IMG/VR virus record: IMGVR_UViG_3300020432_000004
DNA length: 64,000 bases
Strand: one strand, 5' to 3'
DNA from: a virus
Lineage: Duplodnaviria > Caudoviricetes
The position numbers were made by a program, and so were the translations under genes. The first letter of the stretch is position 1. Each line of letters starts with the position of its first letter. The notes under the pieces are model-generated. The model saw nothing but the letters and a program-made list of their open reading frames with translations. It had not been told where the DNA came from and ran no database searches. Shown piece after piece: positions 3,297-63,932 of the stretch.

Positions 3297-6200
3297 ATGA
3301 CAAGAACAGTTCCTGGTTCTGGTGCCGTCATTGAACCAATATTTGATGAGATTTTTGGAGTTCGTGCGGTAGAAGTTTTAGATGGTGGTAGTGGATACAC
3401 AACATCCGATCCCCCTCGTCTTACTATAACTGGTTGTGGAACTCCAGATGTAGAAGCATTGTTGTATCCAATTATTGATAATGAGTCAGGAAGAATTATA
3501 CACGTTAGAGTTCTTAGTAGAGGTAGAGGATATGATCCATTAAGATTACAGATCATTCCAGAACAAGAAACTCCTAATGTTGTAACGTCATTTGATATAA
3601 AAAGAATATTTCAATCACATCCTAATAGTCCTACTACAGCAGCATTTACAGATGATAGACTCAGAATAGTATCTGATAATCATCCTAAACCATCTCAACA
3701 TTTCTTGACTGAAAGAGAACCAGGTGGTTCTGATACAATAGTTGATAGATCCTTTGATCAGACTTTTATCTATAGAGGTGGTAAAGATGTTCCTCATCCA
3801 GACGCTGCTAATAGACAATATCAAGGTGATAAAGCCATGGGTATCATGGCAAATGGTGTTTTACTTCATACACCTGAGTGGGGACAAGATGGAAATCCAC
3901 CACCAGGATTTACTATTGATGCTGTAAAATATCCTTACATAAAAAATAATAATGCTTATGATGCTGTACTAGATAATCAAGTTTATTATTATAAAACAAA
4001 TAAACTTATAAACGAATGGAATTTAGATAATGGTGTATTTGATTGGGGTAGAATAAGACAGTTTGTTTGGCAAGTTAAAACAGAACATGATAATGTTTTA
4101 ATAGACTTAACGAGTTTAGATCAGACTATAGGTTCAGTTGAAGTAGGTAGAGTTGTTGATTGTATTACTTCTACTGCAAAAGGTGAAGTAGCAAAAATTG
4201 TTAAAGATAATTTAGGTAATCCTACAAAAATATATTTAAGAAATCTTACTGGTGTTCCTTTCCAAGAAAATGATGTATGTTTAGGTGCTAATGGATTCCA
4301 GTTTAGAGTATCAGGTATTCCTAGAACATTTGAGACTGGTATATTCTATATTGAGTTTGGAGAAGAAGCACATGAATTTGGTCCTTTCTCACCTGGCACA
4401 TTTTATTTTGCTCCAGAAGGAATCAAAGTTCAAAGAAATTATTTAATTATTTGGGATCAAAGTCATCCATCTAACGGTGGACAAGGTGGAATGCCACACC
4501 CAATGAGATTCAGTACAACTGCTGATGGAACTCTTAATGGTGGAACTTTATATTATAACAGCACTGGTGTTACACAAGCACCTGCTGCTGATTACGAGGA
4601 TGAATATAAAGCATTATTCTTAATGAATGCTGATGAGAATAATAAAATTTATTATCATTGTGCATTCCATCGTTATATGTCTGGATATCTTGGTGATGAA
4701 GGTTACATGGAACTTGCATCAGATGTAGATCCTGACCCAATGGTTAATACTTATTATTTTAAAGAGTATTATCAAAGTAATACAAGTGATCCTAATACCA
4801 TTGATTATAGTAGACATCCTGATGGACACTCTAAAATATTGGGTATGTCTTTTGATGGATATCCCATCTATGGTGCTTGGGGTTATAATTCAACTGGAGC
4901 TACTGCTAGAGAAGTCTCAGGATATAGATTAAAAACAACTGCTGAGTTACCAGGTAATCGTCCTGATGTTAATACAGTTTCTACTGTAACATATACTGTA
5001 ACTGTATCAAACGGAAAATTTCAATTTGATGGAAGTAGACCTTCATTTTTAACATTAGAAAGAGGTAAGACATATATCTTTAATCAAAATGATGCATCAA
5101 ACGATAGTAGTCATATATTTGTCGGTACATCTGATGATGGATGGCATGTAGGTGCACCTCCTATTATTGGAGATACATCATATCTTTTACCAGGCACTCA
5201 TGTAACTTACTGGATTGATGGTGCTCAAACTACTTACAATACTTACATCTCTGCTTTTAATACTGCAACAACAAGAGAAACTAGATTCCATGTTCCTGTT
5301 GATGCACCTATAGCATTATATTTGTTTGGATACTCTGTAGCAGATACAGGAATAAGATGTGTTATTGAGGGTTATGTACTTGGTGATTTAACTGAAGATT
5401 ATATACATGATTCAAGTGTTGGAACTCTTGATGCTTATAATGGTAAGTTCGGTCCTACTCCAGAATATCCTAACGGAACCTATGCATATTATATGACAGA
5501 AGATAGTTCTTCTGTTCCTACGTATCCTTATGCTATAGGTAATAGATTTTATGGAACTCCATTATTTGAAGGTGATAATGTTCCTGCACAAGTAGATACA
5601 TTCCCTGCAGGTGCTGCAGGTGATGTTGTTCTAAACGCTAGTGGACAAATAGCATACATTAGAATGACAAAGTTTGGTGATAATTATTTCGGTCCTGCAC
5701 AAGCAAAAATATTAGGTGGAGAAGGAACTGGTGCATTGGCAAGTCCTATTGTACAAACAGTTACTGGTTTATCATTATTAAATTCTGGTAGAGAGTATGC
5801 TACACCTCCAACACTTATATTTGAAGGAGGTGGAGGTGGTGTTGGTGCTGAAGGTGCTGCTGAGATTGATACCTTCGGTAAAGTTACTTCTATTAATATT
5901 GTTGATGAAGGTGAGTTCTATCAGGAACCTCCTTATGTGTTAATTACAGGTGGTGGAGGTATTGGTGCTAAAGCGGTTGCTAGAATTGATCAGGGTGTAA
6001 TTGTAGGAATTGATGTTACAGATTCTGGTTCTGGATATATCAATCCACCAAATATTGTATTTACTAAACTTGTTAATTTAAAACGTAAGACAAGAGCAAG
6101 ACAGTCTTATAACTCTCAAGCAATTTACTTAACTGGTCTCGTAAAAGATTTAGCTGCATCAGATACAGAAATATTTGTTGATACTACTACAGGTTTTCCT

Positions 6201-15000: not shown

Positions 15001-16274
15001 CTTCTTCAACTGTTCAAGATGCTTTCCCAAGTAGCACACCAACATACACAACATCACAAAGAAGAGTAACAGTACAACATTCACATCATGGTATGCATGA
15101 TACTGATAACAATGTTGTTATTGAGGGTGTTAAATCTGAAGTATCACCAACATACTTGACATCATCTATATCTGATTCAGATACAACTATACAAGTTAAT
15201 GATGCTACTGCGTTCCACACTGTTATTAATGGTGCAAACGTAGGTTCTCTAAACTTAGGTTATATTAAGATTGAAGATGAGATTATGTCTTACACAGGAA
15301 TTAGTGGAACTGGTAAAACTATTACTATTAATGAAAGAGGATTAGCAGGAACTACTGCTGTAAGTCACGCTGATGAAACAGATGTAGAATGCTATAACTT
15401 AGATGGTATTCCTCTAATTGAAATTAATAAGACTCATAATAATATTATGAATCCTACCTTAGATAGTTACGATCTTGCAACTTCATCTATTGCTAGGTTG
15501 GGTATTAGGTCAGGTGATAACCATGTTATTGCATCACAAAATATTCAGTATGAGATCATTTCTCCTCAGATTCAGAGAATGACTCTACCTAAGACACAGA
15601 TTACTGCAAGAGTTAACACTATTACAGGTACATCTATTAATGATGGAAATGCATTATCACAAAATTCATTCAGTAATACTGGTGAGTTCTATGATGTAAA
15701 CCTAGGTGAGGACAACTACTTTGTTGCTCCACAGTTGATATGTTCTGCTATCAATGAGTCTGCTGAATTAAGTGGTGCCAAGTCATTTAGACTTGACTTA
15801 ACAATGTTCAGTGAAATGGATAACGTAACTCCTGTTGTTGATACTGACAGAATGTCTATCACTACAATCAGTAATAGAATCAATGCTCCTAGTGATACTA
15901 CCACCGCTACATTACCAGTTGGTGATGAACATAACGGTGTTTATATTACTAAGGTTGCTGATCTAACTAATCCATCATCCTCTATTAAATTAATGTTTGC
16001 GGGTTATCGTCCATCTAACACTCACATTAAACCTCTATATAGAGTATTACCCTCTGGATCTACTGATCCAATCGAAAGTTTAGGATGGCAGTATTTTGAT
16101 ACTCAAGATGCTAAGATTCCAGATACTACTGAGGAAGTAGAATTTTTCGATTATGAGTATGAAGTCACTGGTTTAGACTTCTCACAATATCAAATTAAGA
16201 TAGTGTTCGTATCTCCAAACCAAGCATACTCACCAGTCATTAGAGATCTAAGAGCAATCGCCCTTGCTGTATAA
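9045..16274 (+). CDS. Large virion structural protein (VrlC/DUF4815-like)
   Basis: N-terminus NLNVTPYYDDFD..KNFYRVLFRPG.PIQARELTQ.QSILQNQ; DPLAQSF; GVLFKSQNASTW; C-terminal RDLRAIALA. Confidence 0.85.
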   Translation: MAQNTNLNVTPYYDDFDKAKNFYRVLFRPGFPIQARELTQSQSILQNQIENMGTHLFKDGSMVIPGQVGYDLNVDAIMVQESFLGADVESYRNQITGKIITGLTSGVKAKVLYSISSAQSDKGYITLYIKYIESGGEENNQTTFTNNEQLITDTEITFGTTLIEVGSPFAQLLPTAATQVGSVAYVQEGVYFIRGFFVDVPYQYILLDQYGSNPKYRIGLEILESIITPEDDLSLNDNAAGTSNYAAPGSHRFRITTNLVKKLLTDEADKDFIELLRINGNKIEKLVDRSAYDELEKSLATRTYEESGDYVVSDFQINMRENLNDGFNNGVYESGDTTAQGNSAAESMYAIEFGPGTAYVRGYRLKTLSPTYVDLAKPRDTEAAQNTIIPFTLGNYSKIQNLYGFVNTAGSTIGNAYQTVELHDRFTATPGDAVGNLIGYARVASLEFLQDPDSNFGDADDKYNMHLFDVQMFTVLHLASAQTISTGAADQRGTLVVGKSSGARGYLIDNVASATHLNLYQVEGNFQKGEMVTVDGLNLDTITNMHQYVYSDTRQVLARDENTQAVEFTADIILEDLKFVQGATFTYDATSSNEKITGLNSNFAADLRPGDRLYFSETKYVDVDFVDPTNLASSNNSTIFTYSTQVVNVTPGAGSAGPTGGTYNTILRYRAKLWETEKATLLKQMPKPYVKSISDESMVVRRTFDNQTVAANAISITLPENEQFQAITNSAYSFTVMGSTSSAYPVGAQIPIDTVNTGAIGYTTFTSADRTTIQITNLDVTGDAGAITSVKVTASVSKNVTAKKTKSPYNMFVLKVNQTVSNLDKQNYGLTYSGVYGTRIEDVDLSLGITDVFNIHAVYESLDDADPILPSITLVEPTFFETKSIVTGKTSGARARVVDFNSSTLKLSIVYLSGQFISGETVDGFNSSNIAIQGIINDSVGSIVAGSKVITDRYELETGQTGFIYGISKLVRKKGVAKPIRKLKIVLDYYSHAATGDYFAGQSYLDTPYADVPYYQEKFLPDFLDFRPGVKNLFTGTGTVSSPAYVNAATLDFKHRTFPTAGSPAATLFDVPKVNSDFRCDFDWYLPRVDKLYLLPTGEFQVVKGKSEQRPSPPDDLQDGMLLATLLHAPYGFDPASDVVIQKSDNRRYTMRDIGKIEKRLDQVEYYTSLNMLESDTFNVEITDASGKNRLKNGFIVDDFTDHSKSSTTNPDFAAALSYSDGTAQPSHYTTNTALLINESLSQGYRKTGPLITLPYEEIPLITQSYASRVENVNPFNVFTYIGRIDLTPASDDWVDTNRLPVNVIDVEGDFEATSRAMNVDQSGFAPIQWGSWNTNWSGESTGAWSRWREHTFANFVRGRGRRVMGSRTITTTTNQTRRGIRSRVVPRIDRQSMGDRTVSSTSIPWIRSRNIDVTVARMKPRTTFYSFFDGTKIGDYMMPKVLEVIKDPSTDSRTNSTPFVIGETVRGLTSGARFRVSAPNDFFTWNPYDDTDMPSSYSSTTNFINVDTDSLAAQAVGQYYGNIQVGEVLVGTSGARAVVRDRRLMTDRLGQWKGSLFIPPPQISTNPRWQTGSRLLRLTTHPEDARTGGAVASAAQTEYAAKGTLNTLQENVLAIRNADIVQDTVTQDRTVQTTRTETRQVGWWDPLAQSFLVDEEGGVFLTSVDVYFNSKDGNIPISMQIRTMSNGYPTTSILPFSDVTVTPDTIQTSETGAIATKFTFQAPVYIPQSIEHCFVLFSDSNEYQVWISRMGELDITGDRTISEQPYAGVLFKSQNASTWTADQYEDLKFIIYKAVFDTNTVSQLTLNNAPLDLGNGGKIVLRTDPVQTYQPELQLVMNAVNSVLPYTVGARVYQKTTLAQGTVKEVTDSNAGVLLTINDISGTWQAGSSTGGTIINRLVSSKTTATMTVSSASGDFTVGETITGNSAAAPTAEVVSWTDNGGGNGSLTLKYVSTTFTTTTEQISGGTSGKTATVASISYAGDNVSSSTVQDAFPSSTPTYTTSQRRVTVQHSHHGMHDTDNNVVIEGVKSEVSPTYLTSSISDSDTTIQVNDATAFHTVINGANVGSLNLGYIKIEDEIMSYTGISGTGKTITINERGLAGTTAVSHADETDVECYNLDGIPLIEINKTHNNIMNPTLDSYDLATSSIARLGIRSGDNHVIASQNIQYEIISPQIQRMTLPKTQITARVNTITGTSINDGNALSQNSFSNTGEFYDVNLGEDNYFVAPQLICSAINESAELSGAKSFRLDLTMFSEMDNVTPVVDTDRMSITTISNRINAPSDTTTATLPVGDEHNGVYITKVADLTNPSSSIKLMFAGYRPSNTHIKPLYRVLPSGSTDPIESLGWQYFDTQDAKIPDTTEEVEFFDYEYEVTGLDFSQYQIKIVFVSPNQAYSPVIRDLRAIALAV

Positions 16275-16507
16275 TGAAAATCCCGATTAAAGACGGAGAG
16301 AAAAGACTCGAAGGATGGTACAAGGATGATAGAACTGGAGCAATCCAGTGTTCTGACAAAGCGAAGTATGAACAATACATGAAGCAATATAGAGCAGAAC
16401 AAAAGAAAGAACTTGATTTAGCCACTTTACAAAATGATGTTTCTGGTCTAAAATCAGAGTTAGATGAGATTAAATCTCTTCTGTTAACGTTAACAAAACA
16501 ATCCTGA
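16274..16507 (+). CDS. Small coiled-coil hypothetical protein
   Basis: Translationally coupled (TAATG) to the VrlC-like gene; heptad C-terminus. Confidence 0.7.
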   Translation: MKIPIKDGEKRLEGWYKDDRTGAIQCSDKAKYEQYMKQYRAEQKKELDLATLQNDVSGLKSELDEIKSLLLTLTKQS

Positions 16508-16509
16508 TT

Positions 16510-16746
16510 ATGGAAAAAATAGGTCAAGACCAAATGTTGTCTCAATTTAAAGAGAGATATACAGGTCTGATAAATGAAAATCAGCAACTTGCTGAAAAAA
16601 TTAAACAAAATGAAGTGCAAGCACTAAAGCTTCAAGGTGCTATCGAAGCATTGGAGTATTACAATCCTCCCGAAGAGACTCCAGAATCACCCCCAGAAAT
16701 ACCTGCGGATGATATAGCTGATGAGTCTCCTGGTTTAACTGATTAA
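16510..16746 (+). CDS. Small coiled-coil hypothetical protein
   Basis: ORF with LKLQGAIEALE coiled coil and acidic tail, followed by a terminator. Confidence 0.7.
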   Translation: MEKIGQDQMLSQFKERYTGLINENQQLAEKIKQNEVQALKLQGAIEALEYYNPPEETPESPPEIPADDIADESPGLTD

Positions 16747-42038: not shown

Positions 42039-43493
42039 ATGGATCTTACAATCCGAAAGAAGAATGAAGTATATTTAAAAGTTGACGCTGAACCATCTAC
42101 CCATCAAGAACTAGCAGATTTTTTTACCTTTGAGGTTGACAATGCAAAGTATATGCAGAAGAACCGAAGGTATAAAGGTTGGGATGGGAAAGTAAGATTA
42201 TATTCTCCTGCTACTGGGGAGATATACTGCGGTCTATATTCATATCTAATAGATTGGTGTCAGAAAAAGAAGTATTCATATCATACTGAAAAGCACGAAC
42301 ATTTTGGTCTCCCTTTGGAAGAGAACGATCTAATAACTCCTGAGGCTGTAACTGGCTTCGTTCGGGCACTTTCTCTTCCTGTAAAAGTACGCGATTACCA
42401 ACTGAAAGCAATATACGAATGCCTGAGATACAACAGACGAGTCCTATTGTCGCCAACTGCCAGTGGGAAATCCTTGATGATCTATTCATTGGTTAGGTTT
42501 CATGTAAATGTTGATCGTCCAGTTCTTATTGTAGTTCCTACTACTTCTCTTGTAGAACAAATGTATAAAGACTTTGAGGAGTATGGATGGAAAGCATCAG
42601 CATACTGTCATAAGATATACGGTGGAGAAGAAAAATATACAGATAAACCAGTTGTAATTACTACTTGGCAATCCATATACAAGGAACCACGTAAATGGTT
42701 TGAACGCTTTGATGTTATTATAGGCGATGAAGCACATTTATTCAAGGCTAAATCTCTAACAAGATTAATGTCTAAGTTACATGACTGTAAGTATAGGTAT
42801 GGTTTTACTGGGACACTGGATGGAACTAACGTAAATCAATTAGTATTAGAAGGTGTTTTTGGTAAATGTTCTAAAGTAACTAAGACTGAAACACTGATGA
42901 AGAAAGGACATCTTGCTCAGTTAAAAATAAAAATTTTATTGTTGAAACATGAAGAGAAACTATTTGAAGGATATCAAGATGAGATAGAGTACCTGACCGA
43001 ACATGAAAACCGTAATAAATTTATCCGAAATCTAGCGTGTGACCTAGAAGGTAATACACTAGTGCTCTTTAATTACGTAGAAAAACATGGTCTACCTTTA
43101 CATGAATTGATAAATAGCTATACAGATAAGTCTGTATACTTAGTTCATGGTGGTGTTGAGACAGAAGATAGAGAAGAGATTAGATGGTTGACTGAAAGGT
43201 CTAGCAATTCTATTATCGTTGCATCGTTAGGAACATTCTCTACTGGTATCAATATCAAAAACCTACACAATGTTATTTTTGCATCACCTTCTAAATCAAG
43301 AATACGTAACCTTCAGTCGATAGGTCGTGTATTGAGGAAGGGAGAGAATAAATCGAAAGCAACTCTTTATGATATAGCTGATGACATTTCTACGGATACA
43401 GGAAAGAACTATACTCTCCGACATCTATATGAAAGGATCAAAATATATAATGAAGAGAACTTTAATTATGAAGTTGTAGAAATTACTATCTAA
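42039..43493 (+). CDS. uvsW: SF2 DNA helicase UvsW
   Basis: WDGKVRL, RDYQ, SPTASGKS, GDEAH, GFTGT, FSTGINI, QSIGRVLR. Confidence 0.96.
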   Translation: MDLTIRKKNEVYLKVDAEPSTHQELADFFTFEVDNAKYMQKNRRYKGWDGKVRLYSPATGEIYCGLYSYLIDWCQKKKYSYHTEKHEHFGLPLEENDLITPEAVTGFVRALSLPVKVRDYQLKAIYECLRYNRRVLLSPTASGKSLMIYSLVRFHVNVDRPVLIVVPTTSLVEQMYKDFEEYGWKASAYCHKIYGGEEKYTDKPVVITTWQSIYKEPRKWFERFDVIIGDEAHLFKAKSLTRLMSKLHDCKYRYGFTGTLDGTNVNQLVLEGVFGKCSKVTKTETLMKKGHLAQLKIKILLLKHEEKLFEGYQDEIEYLTEHENRNKFIRNLACDLEGNTLVLFNYVEKHGLPLHELINSYTDKSVYLVHGGVETEDREEIRWLTERSSNSIIVASLGTFSTGINIKNLHNVIFASPSKSRIRNLQSIGRVLRKGENKSKATLYDIADDISTDTGKNYTLRHLYERIKIYNEENFNYEVVEITI

Positions 43494-43494
43494 C

Positions 43495-43938
43495 ATGGCA
43501 ATCAATTACGCAAAGCATGAAGAGGAGTTCTACGGAGTTTTCAAACTCGTGAGTGGAGAGGAAGTACTTGGTCGAGCAGTTTTAACAGAAGATCAAGGAG
43601 AGTCTCTAGTTTTTATTCAAGAACCAGTTTGTATACAATTCATAGACAAAGAAATAAATGAAAAGAAACTAGCACGTGCTATTGGGTTTTCCAAATGGCA
43701 ACAGTTATCTGATGAAGATTTTTATATTATAAGAGAGAAAGATATTATTACTGTTTCATCTATGAATAAAGAAGTTATTTTCATGTATGAAGCATACGTC
43801 CACGGTGCCGACGGTTTTGGGAAACCTAGACCACAAATGAAAACAGACCTCAGTAAAACTTCTGGTTACGTAGGTAGGATTGATGAGGCAAGAAAGAAGT
43901 TTGAAAAGATCTTTAAAGACTCTACAGAATCCCCTTGA
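43495..43938 (+). CDS. Conserved T4-like phage hypothetical protein (Sm-like fold suspected)
   Basis: KLVSGEEVLG motif; usual position between uvsW and gp55. Confidence 0.6.
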   Translation: MAINYAKHEEEFYGVFKLVSGEEVLGRAVLTEDQGESLVFIQEPVCIQFIDKEINEKKLARAIGFSKWQQLSDEDFYIIREKDIITVSSMNKEVIFMYEAYVHGADGFGKPRPQMKTDLSKTSGYVGRIDEARKKFEKIFKDSTESP

Positions 43939-43952
43939 ACCCTTACATGGTT

Positions 43953-43981
43953 ATTGTAGTGGTATTTGACACCTTTGTCAA
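43953..43981 (-). promoter_or_regulatory. Overlapping antisense sigma70 promoter
   Basis: Minus strand TTGACA(43981-76)-17 nt-TACAAT(43958-53). Confidence 0.6.
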
Positions 43982-43994
43982 GCCCTGCTATAAT
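43966..43994 (+). promoter_or_regulatory. Consensus sigma70 promoter of gp55
   Basis: TTGACA(43966-71)-17 nt-TATAAT(43989-94). Confidence 0.85.
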
Positions 43995-44017
43995 AAATCT
44001 ATTGTCGGAGGACAAAT

Positions 44018-57650: not shown

Positions 57651-58061
57651 ATGACAGAAGCAGTTAAAAAAGAAGAACCTAAGAAGAAAGGTATCCTAGG
57701 TAAGCTTAAAGAAGCAGCAGACGATAAAGAAGAGCAACTCGCTATTCTTTCTACATTCGTAAGATTGGCAGTGCTTGTGTGGTCCGCAGGGATCTTGACG
57801 TTAGCATATGTTAAATTGCCAGCTGCATTTAAAATACCAGAACAAAAACTGGATCCAACTTTCATAGCTTCGGTCTTTACTGGTACGCTAGCTACTTTTG
57901 GCGTACAAGCGGCTGGTAAGAAAAAGAATGGTGATAATGGTGGAGGAGCAAGCATATCTAAAAAAGATATGGAGTTCCTTATTGCTAAAGCATCAGAGAC
58001 TGCACCTGCTCAAACTATAAGAATTGAGTCAGCACCTGTCAAAATTGTCCCTGATAAATAA
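57651..58061 (+). CDS. Two-TM membrane protein
   Basis: VRLAVLVWSAGILTLAYV and DPTFIASVFTGTLATFGV, with charged termini. Confidence 0.7.
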   Translation: MTEAVKKEEPKKKGILGKLKEAADDKEEQLAILSTFVRLAVLVWSAGILTLAYVKLPAAFKIPEQKLDPTFIASVFTGTLATFGVQAAGKKKNGDNGGGASISKKDMEFLIAKASETAPAQTIRIESAPVKIVPDK

Positions 58062-58065
58062 GATC

Positions 58066-58302
58066 ATGCAAAAAATTATTAATGTACTTGCTATTGCGTC
58101 TACTGTTGTATCTGCTACCGTTGTTGGTGGTGGTATATACGTATACCTCAATAGGGCATCCATCATTGATGGAGTTAAATCTAAAGTTATGGAATCAGTT
58201 ATGCCATCTGTACCAGGTATTAATGGATTGGGTTCTGGAACTACACCAGAGGTAGGACTTCCTGAGTTACCTGTGGCAGATGTAGAAGTTCCTAGTTTTT
58301 AA
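58066..58302 (+). CDS. N-terminally anchored small protein
   Basis: MQKIINVLAIASTVVSATVVGGGIYVY; GATAAATA late box at 58053-60. Confidence 0.65.
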   Translation: MQKIINVLAIASTVVSATVVGGGIYVYLNRASIIDGVKSKVMESVMPSVPGINGLGSGTTPEVGLPELPVADVEVPSF

Positions 58303-58311
58303 GAGGTAATT

Positions 58312-58905
58312 ATGAATAAATGGATAGGTATTAGTCTGGGAGGAATCTTAGGCATAACACATATAGGTATGATTGGTATGATTGCTACTCAGAAAGGTAG
58401 TAAATTACCTAAGATTGATATACCTCATGGTGACTATACTTCTTATGTTATCTCAGCAAGCGAAGAAGGATATAAAATAAGTTATTCAGCAAACGATCCC
58501 AAGACAGCATACATTACTAAAGATATTAAAGAGAAAGGTGGATTCCTAGGACTTGCAAATAATACTACTAAGGTTACAGAAGAGTACTTCATGGATGGTC
58601 AGATCAATCAGGGAGGACCTGTATCTAACAATAGGTCTTGGATAGATATGCCACCTGGTTTGACTGCAGCTCAGGCAGCTGCAATAGATGAGATCAGAAA
58701 AAGTGAAGCATGTATCGAAGCAGTCGGTGCAGCAAAAGGAACTGGGAGACTGGTTGGGACTAGCATTGGTGCTGCTGCTGCTCCTAGTCTTTCCTCTATT
58801 CCCTTTGTTGGTTGGGTTGCTGCAGGTTGGGTAGCAATGTTTGGTGGAGATCAAGGTGCAGATATAGGTGGTAACATGGCAGAAGATTTAAACAAGAACT
58901 GCTAA
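58312..58905 (+). CDS. Membrane protein with C-terminal glycine-zipper hairpin
   Basis: N-terminal TM; GRLVGTSIGAAAA..IPFVGWVAAGWVAMFGG..GADIGG; two Cys. Confidence 0.7.
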   Translation: MNKWIGISLGGILGITHIGMIGMIATQKGSKLPKIDIPHGDYTSYVISASEEGYKISYSANDPKTAYITKDIKEKGGFLGLANNTTKVTEEYFMDGQINQGGPVSNNRSWIDMPPGLTAAQAAAIDEIRKSEACIEAVGAAKGTGRLVGTSIGAAAAPSLSSIPFVGWVAAGWVAMFGGDQGADIGGNMAEDLNKNC

Positions 58906-59387
58906 TGCAGACTGTTGATAATTTTTTAAGTGCTGAAGAGTTCAATGATTTGGAGTCTCGCATACTAGGAGACCATATTGATTGGTATTGGAATGATGGT
59001 ATTACTCATGAGGGTGATGGGTTATTCCAATTTACTCATACTATATTTGATGCACCTAAAGATCAGAAGAGTCCTTTGTTCTATCATTGCAAATCAGTAT
59101 TAAATAAACTAGGTGGTGCTGTCTATAGAATAAAAGCAAACCTAACTATTAAAACTGAATCACATACATACACTGGTTATCATACAGATTTTACTGAAGA
59201 GGAATTTGTAGGACAGACTGGTGTTTTTTATATGAATACTAACAATGGATGGACTGAGTTTAAATCTGGTATAAAGGTAAATAGTATTGCAAACCGCATG
59301 TTAATATTTGATTCTAAGTACGAACATGTAGGTGTAACATCTACTGACAGTAATCGTAGAGTCGTTCTAAATTTTAATTTTAAGTAA
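58905..59387 (+). CDS. 2OG-Fe(II) oxygenase
   Basis: RIKANL, YHTD, NTNNG.T.F, NRMLIFD...EH.G, RVVLNFN. Confidence 0.8.
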   Translation: MQTVDNFLSAEEFNDLESRILGDHIDWYWNDGITHEGDGLFQFTHTIFDAPKDQKSPLFYHCKSVLNKLGGAVYRIKANLTIKTESHTYTGYHTDFTEEEFVGQTGVFYMNTNNGWTEFKSGIKVNSIANRMLIFDSKYEHVGVTSTDSNRRVVLNFNFK

Positions 59388-59629
59388 TGGATTTTCAAAA
59401 AATAACTACAGGAGTAACAGCAGCAGCAGTTGTAGGAACTGGTGCAGTAGTTGGTGGTGGTCAAATTATTGACAATATGAATGACGGTCCTGCCAGAAGA
59501 CAAGAAGCACAATTAGAAGAGATAAGAAAAGTTATCAGAGAAGAGATTTATATACAACTAGTAGAGAACTGGCCAAAGACTTCAGGTCCTGTGAAAGGTT
59601 ATCAAGTTAATCCTATACCTAAGAAGTAG
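59387..59629 (+). CDS. N-terminally anchored small protein
   Basis: TAAAVVGTGAVVGGG segment followed by a coiled coil. Confidence 0.65.
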   Translation: MDFQKITTGVTAAAVVGTGAVVGGGQIIDNMNDGPARRQEAQLEEIRKVIREEIYIQLVENWPKTSGPVKGYQVNPIPKK

Positions 59630-60449
59630 GTTTTCTAGGAGGCAATCCTTTTTTCTTACGATACTCATCCGTTATAATATCTTGACGAGTGGGTTTCGTA
59701 ACTTTTTTGCCAAATTTTTTCTTAAAGAAGTCTGTTGCTTTTTTAATTATAGGTTTTATTACTCTTAATAATAATGGTGTTGCAGCTGCAGACGCAGTTG
59801 CAATTACTGCTATTGCTGCTGTTGTGCTGACTTGACCTGCACTAGGTACAAACTGTTCTACTGTTGGAACTGGTTCCCAAATCGTTTCACATATCAATCC
59901 ATCAGGTGTTAGTTTATATTCTTTAACTTGCTCATCACCTTTCTGGTTTCTATCACCTATACGTCTAGCATTAGGTGGAGGACACTCTACTTCTTTCTTA
60001 TTATCGCCAGGTGTTTTTGGTGGTTCAACATCTGGTGAAGGAGGTGTTAAAGGTTCACCTGTATCAATACCCTCTGCCTCTTCTGGTTCAACGTATACTG
60101 TTTGCCAAGACAATTCTCTAGCATCATACTCAGGTGGTTCATAGTATGGCATACCACCATCACATAACACTACGTTCTGTTTAGGATCATCATTTACTAG
60201 TTGTTTATTTTTATTAGCAGGATTCTTTGCGTTCTCTTTATTGACTTTTACACAACCTGGCATGTTTACAATAGGAGTTCCTATCAATGTTGTTACTGGA
60301 ACTTCTATTGGTAAAGCACTGTACGGTGAGTAGACCCAATTATGTTGAATGGGTCTAACACCTATGTAATTATTTCCAACAGGACGAATGGTAATATTAG
60401 GTATACCCGCATTATTTAATTGTATATTTTGTATTTCATTTATCGGCAT
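59619..60449 (-). CDS. Cys/Pro-rich protein with C-terminal membrane anchor and basic tail
   Basis: Four Cys, Pro-rich linker, TTAAIAVIATASAAATPLLLRVIKP...KKK; AGGTGA SD before ATG 60449. Confidence 0.75.
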   Translation of the reverse strand: MPINEIQNIQLNNAGIPNITIRPVGNNYIGVRPIQHNWVYSPYSALPIEVPVTTLIGTPIVNMPGCVKVNKENAKNPANKNKQLVNDDPKQNVVLCDGGMPYYEPPEYDARELSWQTVYVEPEEAEGIDTGEPLTPPSPDVEPPKTPGDNKKEVECPPPNARRIGDRNQKGDEQVKEYKLTPDGLICETIWEPVPTVEQFVPSAGQVSTTAAIAVIATASAAATPLLLRVIKPIIKKATDFFKKKFGKKVTKPTRQDIITDEYRKKKGLPPRKPTS

Positions 60450-61599
60450 TGATATCACCTATTGACATTTCAAAGTCTTTGGGATCATTGCTATTAGGTT
60501 GTTTCCACTTAGGTTGTGGTGTTATATGTTGATGTGGTACTACCTGACCACCAGGAGCTGTTACTACTACGTCAGCACATATGGTATGGTAAGGAGATTT
60601 AGGATGAAAAAATATTCCACTCTTTTTTAATTCACCACAGTTTTTTAATCTTGCTAATTCAAAGTCTAATCTCTTATTAGCTACGTTTTGATTAGACAAA
60701 TCTATCTGAGCCTGTGCTGCATCATGGCATTGTTTAGTTAACTTCTTATTCATAGGTATTGATAGGGTAGCAGACAATCCTATGTTAAATGATTGGTTTG
60801 CTTTCATATCAGTCCGAATAGGTTTTCTCCATAAAACTTGACCAGGATTATCAGGTCTACCGTCAGGTCCGTCTACATCAACTCTGATATCCATGTCAGC
60901 ACCATCTTCAAACCATCTACTACCGTCATCTTTGGTTCGGGTATCATACCATGTTTCCCAAGGGTAGTTCTTAACCGTAATAGTTTGTGTGGTTGTCCGA
61001 CCTGTAAAGTCAGTAGCATCATATTGTGGTTCGTAATATACGTCCTCCCAAGGATCCTTTCTTGAATCTGCAAATTGAATGTATGGTGTAACGTTAAGTG
61101 TACTACCTTGACACTGAACACCATTACCATAGGTATTAGTTATATACGGTCCCTGTAAAACTTGTATAGCTTGATTGGTCACTGAGCCACTGGAATTTGC
61201 TATTGGATTCGCTGTGGCAGATACACCTCCGACACTTTCTGCTAGTACTACTGTTGGAGATAAAATACTAGTTATGGTCGCTATTGCGTAAACGTACTTG
61301 TTGTATCTGTGACACTTTGGATAGTGGTGGTACGCTGTATTATTGTCTGGTTGGTCATCCCTGGGCCTTGATAGCTCTGAGTGAATTGGAATGCTTCGCC
61401 TGGTGTTGATATGGTGAAGTTGTTCGCTTGACTGAAGTCTAAACTGTCGAAGGAACTTGTTACAGTTCCTGATACGTTTACTCCACTTGCTGAAGTTGCT
61501 GATTGTGAAGGAGTCACTGTCACTGTGGAAGTGTTCACTGGTGGGTTGAGTGCTTCTCCATTGTTTGAAACCCCTACCCCTGTTACTGAGTATTCCCAT
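60436..61599 (-). CDS. Probable exported protein (start uncertain), beta-hairpin plus coiled coil
   Basis: Signal-like KYVYAIATITSILSPTVVLA-ES, NIGLSATLSIPM, CxxAAQAQ..LDFELARLKNC; the only canonical start is 319 nt inside the upstream gene. Confidence 0.65.
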   Translation of the reverse strand: MGILSNRGRGFKQWRSTQPTSEHFHSDSDSFTISNFSKWSKRIRNCNKFLRQFRLQSSEQLHHINTRRSIPIHSELSRPRDDQPDNNTAYHHYPKCHRYNKYVYAIATITSILSPTVVLAESVGGVSATANPIANSSGSVTNQAIQVLQGPYITNTYGNGVQCQGSTLNVTPYIQFADSRKDPWEDVYYEPQYDATDFTGRTTTQTITVKNYPWETWYDTRTKDDGSRWFEDGADMDIRVDVDGPDGRPDNPGQVLWRKPIRTDMKANQSFNIGLSATLSIPMNKKLTKQCHDAAQAQIDLSNQNVANKRLDFELARLKNCGELKKSGIFFHPKSPYHTICADVVVTAPGGQVVPHQHITPQPKWKQPNSNDPKDFEMSIGDINADK

Positions 61600-61760
61600 C
61601 CTGTACGATAATCTATTGAAAATATGGTCTCCTGGACCGTGGATTCAGTTTCCGTGTGGCTCGTCATGGAACCCTGTTGGAAATTTGGTACGACTGGAAC
61701 CGCAAGGGTTCTCAGTGGTATACCCATGAAACATATCACTAGTAGTACTATACGTTTCAT
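61281..61760 (-). CDS. Secreted Thr/Ser-rich beta protein (VPVVPNF)
   Basis: Signal peptide MKRIVLLVICFMGIPLRTLA, then alternating T/S strands. Confidence 0.8.
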   Translation of the reverse strand: MKRIVLLVICFMGIPLRTLAVPVVPNFQQGSMTSHTETESTVQETIFSIDYRTGWEYSVTGVGVSNNGEALNPPVNTSTVTVTPSQSATSASGVNVSGTVTSSFDSLDFSQANNFTISTPGEAFQFTQSYQGPGMTNQTIIQRTTTIQSVTDTTSTFTQ

Positions 61761-61777
61761 AATATTATATAGTTGCT

Positions 61778-62290
61778 TTATCGGATTGTGATTTCTGTGA
61801 CTAGTTGTCCAGTTGCTGAAGTTCCAGATCCACCTGCTGTTAGTGCCATTGCTCCAGAAGTTGCAATAGTACCAGCAAGACTTCCTGCAGTACCAGGTGC
61901 TGTAGAAACTATGTTACTGTAACCTAATACATCACCTACATCAGCAGCAGTAGTAACAATAGCATCACCAGTTGTTATGTTCTGAGTGAAACTATATGAA
62001 TTTCCTTGGGTTGACTGTGCTACATCAGGAAGTGCAAAAGTTGCTACACCTGCAGTGCTTACAGCAGAGATACCACCTAAGTTACTAGCAGCACTACCAC
62101 CAGACGGTGTAATAGTTGTGTCAACACCAGATCCACTAGTGCTGTAAGAGTTACCCGCCCTTGAAACTGAAGTATAGCCTGCATCAACCTGTAGTTGAAC
62201 AGAGCTAGTCAGTCTATGAGTAAGGTCTGCTCTCGCTGCCATTGGACTCATCAAACCAATCATACCGAAAAAGATTAATGCTTTTTTCAT
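61778..62290 (-). CDS. Secreted Ala/Gly/Thr-rich beta protein
   Basis: Signal peptide MKKALIFFGMIGLMSPMAARA-D. Confidence 0.8.
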   Translation of the reverse strand: MKKALIFFGMIGLMSPMAARADLTHRLTSSVQLQVDAGYTSVSRAGNSYSTSGSGVDTTITPSGGSAASNLGGISAVSTAGVATFALPDVAQSTQGNSYSFTQNITTGDAIVTTAADVGDVLGYSNIVSTAPGTAGSLAGTIATSGAMALTAGGSGTSATGQLVTEITIR

Positions 62291-62397
62291 TTTCTTCTAA
62301 GTAGATATAACTATCTGATCTATATAGGTGTCGAGAACCCCCTAGAAATGTTCGGGATGTACCGTTTGCTTATACCTGAGTCTATGGTTAAATAGTA

Positions 62398-62451
62398 TTG
62401 TCGCCTTCGGGGACACAATTTACACTCGCTTACTTAAGGAGAACCATTATG
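62398..62451 (+). promoter_or_regulatory. Structured hsp20 5' UTR; ROSE-like RNA thermometer candidate
   Basis: TGTC(G)CC-TTCG-GG-GACA hairpin, then CTC(G)CTT-ACTT-AAGGAG hairpin masking the SD; GTTAAATA late-like box at 62387-94. Confidence 0.6.
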
Positions 62452-62877
62452 GAAAAAATAGAAAGGTATCGCTCTACCGATTTACCAGATCTTTTAGATA
62501 AGATTTCAAGAAACAGTATTGGACTAGACAACTACTTCGATCAGTTTTTTAATATTCCTTCTTCCAACTATCCACCTTATAATTTAATTAACTTGAATAA
62601 TCATGAGTCTAGACTAGAGATTGCTCTAGCAGGATTCAAAAAGGAAGAGGTAAAAGTCTACACAGAATATGGAAAACTAGTAGTAGAAGGAACTAAACCA
62701 GAAGAGAAACAAACCACAGAGTACTTCCACAGAGGACTAGCACGTAGAAACTTTAACAAATCTTGGACACTATCTGAAGACTGTGTAGTTGATGACGTTA
62801 CATTTGAGAACGGATTACTTACAATAGAGCTAAAGAAAATTGTTCCAGAAAAACATGCACGTAAAGATTACATCTAA
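62449..62877 (+). CDS. hsp20: Small heat shock protein (Hsp20/IbpA-like)
   Basis: NYPPYN, LEIALAGF, HRGLARRNF..SWTL, FENGLLTI.L..IVPE; start at ATG 62449 after AAGGAG. Confidence 0.95.
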   Translation: MEKIERYRSTDLPDLLDKISRNSIGLDNYFDQFFNIPSSNYPPYNLINLNNHESRLEIALAGFKKEEVKVYTEYGKLVVEGTKPEEKQTTEYFHRGLARRNFNKSWTLSEDCVVDDVTFENGLLTIELKKIVPEKHARKDYI

Positions 62878-63575: not shown

Positions 63576-63932
63576 ATGAAAGCATTCGCAGTTGCCCTGC
63601 TCGGTTTAGGATTCATTCCTTCCGCAATCGCAGGTCCGTATGTATCCACTAAAACCGAATTTAAAGGTAACGAAGATGGATACTCTAAGATGGTTAACCA
63701 AGCAAGAATTGGTACAACCTTTAAAGTAGGATCATTAAAACCATACATCGAAGCTGGTGGTGGTATTGTATCTCCAGATGGTAAAGATGCAGAAGGATTC
63801 CAAGTAATTGAATTAGGTACAAAGTTTAAACTTACTGACTCACTTGCTGCAAAAGCAAAGTTTGAGCATAAGTGGGAACCAGACTCAGAAAGAGACTGGA
63901 AATTTGAAGTCGGCACTAAGTACAAATTCTAA
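63576..63932 (+). CDS. Small outer-membrane beta-barrel-type protein
   Basis: Signal peptide, amphipathic strands, C-terminal GTKYKF (aromatic-x-Phe OMP signature). Confidence 0.7.
   Translation: MKAFAVALLGLGFIPSAIAGPYVSTKTEFKGNEDGYSKMVNQARIGTTFKVGSLKPYIEAGGGIVSPDGKDAEGFQVIELGTKFKLTDSLAAKAKFEHKWEPDSERDWKFEVGTKYKF

Follow-up and report, generated by a model that had tools for sequence, protein, structure and literature searches.

The window analyzed here is a stretch of 64,000 nucleotides of viral DNA (Duplodnaviria; Caudoviricetes; IMG/VR record IMGVR_UViG_3300020432_000004), which represents a T4-like cyanomyovirus and for which Prochlorococcus phages are the closest DNA matches. We studied a cassette of four consecutive open reading frames (ORFs), here named A, B, C and D, which fill the minus strand from position 59619 to 62290 and are flanked by regA, hsp20 and a gene for a cyanophage outer membrane protein (OMP)-like product. 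A preliminary description of this DNA, made from the sequence alone, singled the four genes out as the sole multi-gene unit on the minus strand of the window, and this is what we found. The only other minus-strand gene candidate of such size that has no longer plus-strand ORF over it is a single ORF of 126 amino acids (aa) at positions 16240-16620.

All four genes belong to known families that have so far been annotated as hypothetical cyanophage genes (T4-GC 234-237, DUF6322). In annotated relatives, A, B, C and D are labeled T4-GC237, T4-GC236, T4-GC235 and T4-GC234, corresponding to gp167, gp166, gp165 and gp164 of phage Syn9, and they were assigned to phrog_564, phrog_650, phrog_848/1755 and phrog_570, respectively. 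The T4-GC 234-237 families are near-core in cyanomyoviruses, being present in 15 of 16 genomes (Sullivan et al., 2010). A literature search recovered no paper on Syn9 gp164-167 or on the function of "OMP1," a name given to members of the A/B family in some records, and no published function was found.

Gene A (61778-62290, minus strand, 170 aa) and gene B (61281-61760, minus strand, 159 aa) both code for Sec signal peptides, in agreement with the preliminary description. In A, the signal peptide spans residues 1-21 and ends at a conserved cleavage site between ARA and DL, followed by a mature part that is beta-rich, free of Cys and rich in Ser, Thr and Gly. In B, cleavage is predicted between A-x-A and VPVVPNF, and the mature N-terminus, VPVVPNFQQGS, is invariant. 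B matches the full DUF6322 model (PF19847, positions 1-100) with 121.8 bits vs. a cut-off of 30.6. A has no direct match to DUF6322; its closest Atlas clusters are DUF6322 "OMP1," and its alignment to B with hhalign yielded a probability of 96.4% (E 1e-9), by which A and B are paralogues. No lipobox was found in either protein: mature A begins with D, mature B with V, and the sole Cys of B lies inside the signal peptide. The AlphaFold2 (AF2) model of A is all-beta and unreliable, with a predicted local distance difference test (pLDDT) score of only 58, and a likeness to outer-membrane barrels was rejected, these being listed by Foldseek only at E >0.6 from that model.

Gene C (60436-61599, minus strand) was also noted previously, and its extent is here corrected to 387 aa, with an ATG start at 61599 inside B. 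Gene D (59619-60449, minus strand, 276 aa) overlaps the end of C by 14 nt, and its start is corrected from GTG 60458 to ATG 60449. The organization of the four genes was compared among 80 IMG/VR loci and in a number of annotated phages. In all of these A, B and C have the same direction, whereas D is located on the opposite strand in 75 of 78 related loci, where it is co-directional with small membrane-protein genes and convergent on C; the same convergent arrangement was observed in P-SSM2, P-SSM7, S-SSM7 and Syn9. D is located behind C, on its strand, solely in the window, its nearest kin (L004-L006) and two distant phages, P-SSM4 and P-RSM4. Because relatives closer to the window (75-80% identity in C) carry the convergent form, D has probably been inverted more than once, always staying beside C. 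Judged by gene order, the conserved unit is thus A-B-C only and D is not a constant operon member. The four ORFs described previously are real, but their organization into a four-gene operon is specific to a few lineages.

Two further observations concern D. In genomes with a convergent D, the annotated ends of C and D overlap on opposite strands by ~80-220 nt (P-SSM2 4333-4547, P-SSM7 3760-3980, Syn9 2711-2790), such that a late transcript of A-B-C would run antisense to the 3' end of the message for D. Also, in the metagenome contig L004, which is identical to the window in A, B and C, the match to D (L004 3450-3959) covers residues 110-279 only, with an open frame of 164 aa, which could be a natural truncation or an assembly indel.

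Late promoter and dual-coding overlap

A T4-type late promoter box of the form CCTATATA is located at 62321-62327 on the minus strand, 31 nt upstream of the start codon of A. The pattern TA[AT]ATA was identified at -27 to -39 relative to the start of A in 52 of 54 distinct relatives, as compared to 4.5% of background windows. The box takes the forms GCTAAATA, CCTATATA and TATAAATA among these relatives, 11 of which have the exact T4 late consensus, TATAAATA. A TATAAATA-like box at a short, fixed distance 5' of the first gene is the arrangement expected of a T4-type late transcription unit. The preliminary description had reported CTATATA late-like boxes upstream of both A and B. The box at A is credible, but the word itself is not enriched in the window (10 copies vs. 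16.7 expected), and the box at B is confined to near kin, with a distance to the ATG of ~5 nt, which is too short. Taken together, the sequence pattern suggests that A-B-C are expressed late. Near-identical contigs covering parts of A, B/C and D were identified in metatranscriptome libraries from three studies; these are assembled contigs that give no strand, start or expression level, and in which uncovered bins are uninformative, and they are only weak evidence for expression of the region.

Genes B and C share a dual-coding segment at 61281-61599 (minus strand), in which the last 106 codons of B are also the first 106 codons of C, read in the -1 frame of B. The ATG of C (61597-61599) is made by the GGA-TGG (Gly-Trp) codons of B. 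In all 77 loci C is in the -1 frame of B, and that frame is open for 313-403 nt 5' of the B stop codon. The C frame contains no stops in the B region, as compared to a mean of 11.5 in the other alternative frame, and synonymous shuffling of B left the C frame open in just 0.06% of the trials. GGATGG, and hence the ATG of C, is present in 66 of 66 distinct sequences. Only 2 of the 99 conserved fourfold-degenerate sites in B and C are invariant, and both are in the codons that make acaggATGg. The overlap recurs in S-TIM5 and P-SSP10 with other NNA-TGG starts.

The peptide of C that is encoded by the overlap has an amino acid identity of 0.40, and it is always basic, with a mean net charge of +13. 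Purifying selection on this N-terminal peptide was rejected, given this identity and a fourfold diversity that is not lower in the overlap (1.33 bits vs. 1.37 and 1.28). These patterns of substitution indicate that selection preserves the open frame of C and not its N-terminal sequence. Two other explanations for the long C frame were considered and rejected. A fusion of B and C is not indicated, as the ORF of 446 aa in P-SSM7 is a long C ORF that runs from the conserved ATG, and no slippery heptamer for a -1 frameshift was seen when the 3' end of B was read by eye. Given the invariant ATG, internal initiation is a simpler explanation for C than frameshifting. The B/C pair provides a well-supported example of dual coding over a long overlap that is under selection, where the gene on the 3' side gave up its own start codon. 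B is unannotated in the GenBank records of P-SSM7, S-SSM7 and P-SSP10 (43238-43609), a systematic annotation gap that arises because gene callers take the long overlapping C ORF.

Proteins C and D and their predicted location

Protein C consists of a basic, poorly conserved N-terminal region of ~100 aa, a hydrophobic segment, an AxA site and an exported domain of ~265 aa with four conserved Cys. The hydrophobic segment (residues 102-120; 61240-61296, minus strand) has a Kyte-Doolittle score of 1.64 and ends with (A/V)-x-A, here VLA followed by ES, and all examined sequences have A at position -1 and A or V at position -3. The homolog in the podovirus P-SCSP1o has a plain, short signal peptide ending with ARA before EG, and ~150 mature residues. 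These features mark C for export, with probable cleavage at the AxA site. Since the cleavage site is conserved and one podovirus has a plain signal peptide, C is probably not anchored in the membrane.

The AF2 model of C (pLDDT 78, predicted template modeling score 0.40) contains two strands of 21-22 residues and a helix of 42 residues (residues 285-326, or 180-221 in 282-aa numbering; 60622-60747, minus strand). The amphipathic strand SFNIGLSATLSIP directly precedes the helix, and both are part of the predicted subunit interface. The signal-like segment, the Cys residues and the succession of strand and helix that had been noted from the sequence are confirmed here. We predicted a complex of three copies of residues 40-245 (282-aa numbering, as in the remainder of this paragraph), in line with the proposal that homo-oligomers of C be modeled, and obtained a score of 0.47 vs. 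0.00 for the best control, which passes the mark of the prediction tool (predict_complex). In the calibration of the tool, 20 of 30 proteins solved as one-chain pairs attained that mark, as did 1 of 23 solved as single chains, counts that can be applied only roughly since C was run with its own alignment and in three copies, unlike the calibration set. The runs agreed in at least 88% of the contacts, with a partner pLDDT of at least 73. The predicted interface covers residues 186-236, strand 60-79 pairs with residues 161-179 of the next copy, and the helices are parallel. In these models, the pattern of self-association fits a ring or barrel-type oligomer without proving one.

We searched for solved relatives of the whole C fold with a PDB profile search, Foldseek, pdb_via and pdb_via_wide, and none were identified. 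Aerolysin-type toxins, FliF and LP rings appeared only as weak, non-significant rows in the fold searches, and a match to FlgH in NCBIfam (E 0.039, 13 bits) is noise. The preliminary description saw in C the strand-then-helix unit of TolC/OEP outer-membrane channels (PF02321). C resembles these in having an amphipathic strand, a turn Pro and a long helix, and in its predicted self-association via strands and parallel helices. It differs in having one strand-helix unit in ~265 mature residues, whereas TolC has a duplicated helix-strand-strand-helix in ~450, and the internal duplication expected of that family (two repeats, about 430-500 aa) was not found in C, which has one long helix. In total, 1 of 61 homologs of C (P0246) gave a match to the OEP Pfam model, with a sub-threshold score of 20.5 bits vs. 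a gathering cut-off of 22, over 50 residues and OEP positions 46-104. The C protein of the window has no OEP match, and TolC was not listed in the PDB profile, Foldseek or VIA searches of the whole model. The Foldseek search advised for C yielded no TolC and a best E-value against PDB of 0.37, and membership of C in the TolC/OEP family was not borne out.

Protein D begins with a variable N-terminus. Its conserved blocks hold four invariant Cys, which are spread over an acidic linker rich in Pro, and are followed by a hydrophobic segment and a cationic tail. The four-Cys N-terminal region is acidic (net charge -11), the hydrophobic segment (residues 213-231; together with the tail 59622-59813, minus strand) has a Kyte-Doolittle score of 1.88, the tail has a net charge of +11, and the motif LPS..V.TTATIA.VAT is conserved. 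The earlier outline of D, with paired Cys, a Pro-rich linker, a C-terminal hydrophobic segment and a basic tail, was accurate.

As a check on a location in the virion, we consulted the published virion proteomes of S-SM1 and Syn9, which both encode T4-GC 234-237, and none of the four families is in the table (PMC3037559 Table S8). The export signals and the virion proteomes support the notion that the A-D products are directed to the host envelope and not to the virion.

Distribution of the module and its putative role in lysis

Homologs of C were matched in 419 phage records, every one of which is a cyanophage or marine-virus record, and in protein clusters that number more than 7,300 at 90% identity and 399 at 50% identity. 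When species genomes were scanned, only cyanophage-like contigs in metagenome-assembled genomes or single-cell assemblies were identified, and relatives of C in the BFVD database are from cyanobacterial myo- and podoviruses. As far as sequence searches reach, C is restricted to cyanophages. A C homolog with 43% identity was found in NZ_RMVE01000006.1, a contig of 188 kb filed as the flavobacterium Nonlabens xiamenensis, which is probably a cyanophage-like genome, either by contamination or as an unrecognized phage.

Among the cyanophages, the module is shared by lineages of different morphotypes. S-TIM5, which represents a myovirus lineage outside the T4-like Kyanoviridae, contains hsp20 together with A, B, C and a convergent D. 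In MED4-117 (38.8 kb), a siphovirus-like phage that was taken as lambda-like from its annotated genes, a DUF6450 gene, A, B and C converge on D and a gene for a 92-aa protein at the end of the tail-fiber operon. The T7-like podovirus P-SSP10 has a gene for a D-like protein, a DUF6450 gene, a B that is unannotated and a C that overlaps it (hhalign probability 99.9%, E 3e-32) between the tail-fiber and small-terminase genes, and the minimal podovirus P-SCSP1o has the same set. Both podoviruses have kept a single DUF6322 gene. The D-like protein of P-SSP10 aligns with D over the hydrophobic segment only (hhalign probability 21%), and homology was not established. T7 keeps the holin gene 17.5 between its tail-fiber and small-terminase genes, so by gene order the P-SSP10 module occupies the T7 holin slot. 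The B/C overlap is kept in T4-like, TIM5-like, siphovirus-like and T7-like cyanophages. In S-PM2, a whole-genome profile search identified neither C nor DUF6450, although positive controls were matched, and this phage is blank for GC218, 219 and 234-237 in the table of Sullivan et al. (2010), which indicates an all-or-none distribution of the module. The expectation that A-D co-occur was confirmed, and this also holds between phage families that are unrelated.

A considerable fraction of Prochlorococcus and Synechococcus cells is killed by marine cyanophages, and to our knowledge none of the genes in the T4-like members has been identified as a holin, a spanin or a dedicated endolysin. Of the phage functions, lysis cassettes are those that one expects to follow the envelope of the host and to be exchanged between types of phage. 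Cyanomyoviruses and cyanopodoviruses have been listed as spanin-less (PMC6139136), and the T4 r genes are missing from cyanophages (PMC2984593). It is for these reasons that we rank lysis first among the roles considered: with a probability that we place somewhat below one half, A-D would be a non-canonical late lysis or outer-envelope cassette common to marine picocyanobacterial phages of different morphotypes, and its action would most likely be at the periplasm or outer-membrane stage. The finding that one cassette of exported proteins is kept in myo-, sipho- and podoviruses provides a concrete gene set as a candidate for the missing lysis machinery, and we consider it the best candidate for how these abundant ocean viruses break their hosts open.

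A gp55-type late promoter, isolated on the opposite strand, would drive A-B-C, and this placement may keep the genes silent until late. A and B would be exported through Sec as paralogous, beta-rich proteins, while translation of C would begin at the ATG within B, in the -1 frame, and its product would be exported, with probable cleavage at AxA. Mature C may then assemble side by side into a disulfide-stabilized, ring- or barrel-like oligomer by which the outer envelope is weakened or perforated. D, with its hydrophobic segment and cationic tail, and the DUF6450 protein with its two transmembrane segments might supply the inner-membrane side as holin, regulator or anchor; DUF6450 is a holin-like candidate because it travels with A-D in MED4-117, P-SSP10 and P-SCSP1o. 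A more specific proposal, which is possible yet doubtful, is that C and the DUF6322 proteins A and B represent a new kind of outer-membrane disruptor, a disulfide-locked strand-and-helix ring that replaces spanins in the myo-, sipho- and podoviruses of Prochlorococcus and Synechococcus, with DUF6450 as the holin and D as an inner-membrane partner or a cationic, membrane-active factor.

We compared the cassette to two known systems. Like the two-component spanins (lambda Rz/Rz1, T7 gp18.5/18.7, P2 LysB/LysC), it consists of late phage envelope genes with overlapping frames, in which one of the partners combines an N-terminal hydrophobic segment with a periplasmic helix and conserved Cys, and in a T7-like cyanophage it is placed beside the terminase genes, as are the lysis genes of T7, in a host group that is otherwise spanin-less. 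However, the order is reversed, with the exported protein first and C starting inside it in the -1 frame. When compared to an i-spanin, C has the basic N-terminus and the hydrophobic segment, but these are followed by a conserved signal-peptidase site and a periplasmic part that is mostly beta with one helix of 42 aa, and there is no sequence or fold match. The T4 holin T and antiholin RI are similar to the cassette in being late and envelope-acting and in pairing a single-pass protein that has a large, Cys-containing periplasmic domain with small, Sec-exported periplasmic proteins; they differ in that no sequence similarity was found and that C has a conserved cleavage site, with a plain signal peptide in one podovirus. 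We know of no lysis inhibition in T7-like phages, which carry the module too.

Several results weigh against a lysis role. No cassette protein matched the holin, endolysin or spanin families, and there is no lipoprotein partner as expected of an o-spanin, since A and B have no lipobox Cys. The fold searches with C gave no significant match, with the Foldseek result cited above and VIA-align 2 reaching ~Z 5 at most, over the helix only. The topology of D is awkward, as its acidic, signal-less N-terminal region of ~205 aa must cross the membrane if the cationic tail is inside. S-PM2 lyses its host without the module. The neighboring gene for an OMP-like barrel (PF24653) and, in relatives, pstS are compatible with transport or envelope remodeling as well, and the genome position in podoviruses is circumstantial evidence. 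The oligomer type, the topology and the lysis role are inferred from sequence and models only.

An alternative that we consider unlikely, albeit the best of the others, is that the exported proteins form a coat or plug at the periplasm or outer membrane in the late phase of infection, such that superinfecting phages can no longer inject or the loss of progeny on debris is prevented. It agrees with the export, late timing and non-virion status of the proteins, with the predicted oligomerization of C and with adjoining genes that are envelope-directed, and the T4 r genes, which serve superinfection and lysis inhibition, are absent from cyanophages (PMC2984593). Yet known exclusion proteins act early, whereas the operon promoter is late, and the module is kept despite different tails and receptors, which is better explained by a requirement that the host envelope imposes, such as lysis, than by receptor masking. 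The position in podoviruses is, moreover, the lysis slot.

We regard it as improbable that C is the channel of a phage-built outer-membrane or periplasmic conduit for nutrients such as phosphate, with A and B as small partners. The cassette adjoins the PF24653 gene, pstS adjoins it in P-SSM7, members of the A/B family have been labeled "OMP1" and one distant C homolog has the sub-threshold OEP score; the window's C, however, has no OEP match, A and B are poor in hydrophobic residues and have no C-terminal aromatic residue, late-only expression leaves little time for uptake to pay, and the module is retained in minimal podoviruses of 38 kb and in siphoviruses with few metabolic genes.

Less credible still is the appendage of the preliminary description, in which A and B would be pilin- or curli-type fiber subunits exported via a C pore that is anchored by D. 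A and B are indeed paralogous, Ser/Thr/Gly-rich beta proteins, and lateral strand contacts are predicted for C, but no functional match to pilin, curli, usher or chaperone families was identified for A-D in Pfam, NCBIfam or PHROG, the poor model of A returned nothing significant in fold searches, podoviruses have a single DUF6322 gene, and D is not co-transcribed with the other genes in most phages. Likewise, that A-D are virion or assembly proteins overlooked by proteomics is very improbable: the cassette comes after gp9 and tail-fiber-like genes in S-SSM7, abuts tail-fiber genes in MED4-117 and P-SSP10 and is expressed late by prediction, but cleavable Sec signals would remove A, B and C from the cytoplasm, the compartment in which tailed phages assemble their virions, the proteins are undetected in S-SM1 and Syn9 virions, and phages with unrelated tails have the same module.

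Of the trans-envelope machine proposed initially, a late, envelope-directed, non-virion set of genes that is conserved together and has a self-associating C by prediction is retained, while the pilin/curli subunits, the TolC pore and a constant D are not. Of the functions listed for it, outer-membrane rupture fits best, because in a cyanopodovirus the module is found in the slot that the holin has in T7, and adhesion by an appendage is without support.

Genes adjoining the cassette

The DUF6450 protein of the window (57651-58061, plus strand; PF20048, T4-GC218, Pfam E 6e-36) has two hydrophobic segments and is 57% identical to the P-SSP10 protein (43697-44002). It is followed by a 92-aa, N-terminally anchored protein (58024-58302, plus strand), which co-occurs with D in MED4-117, Syn9 and P-SSM4 and has been mis-named "plasmid stability" in several records. 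Both are part of a run of small membrane-protein genes at 57651-59629 on the plus strand, which encodes the DUF6450, 92-aa, 197-aa and GC231 proteins.

On the other side of the cassette, the small heat-shock gene hsp20 (62398-62877, plus strand) is divergent from A in the window, as it is in P-SSM7, P-SSM4, Syn9 and S-TIM5, and a link between it and the cassette is possible. Further downstream, a gene at 63576-63932 (plus strand) encodes a protein of 118 aa with a signal peptide and a match to PF24653, "Cyanophage outer membrane protein like beta barrel" (E 2e-31). This protein, which shows weak echoes of PagL and OprF, is a second envelope-directed product encoded near the cassette.

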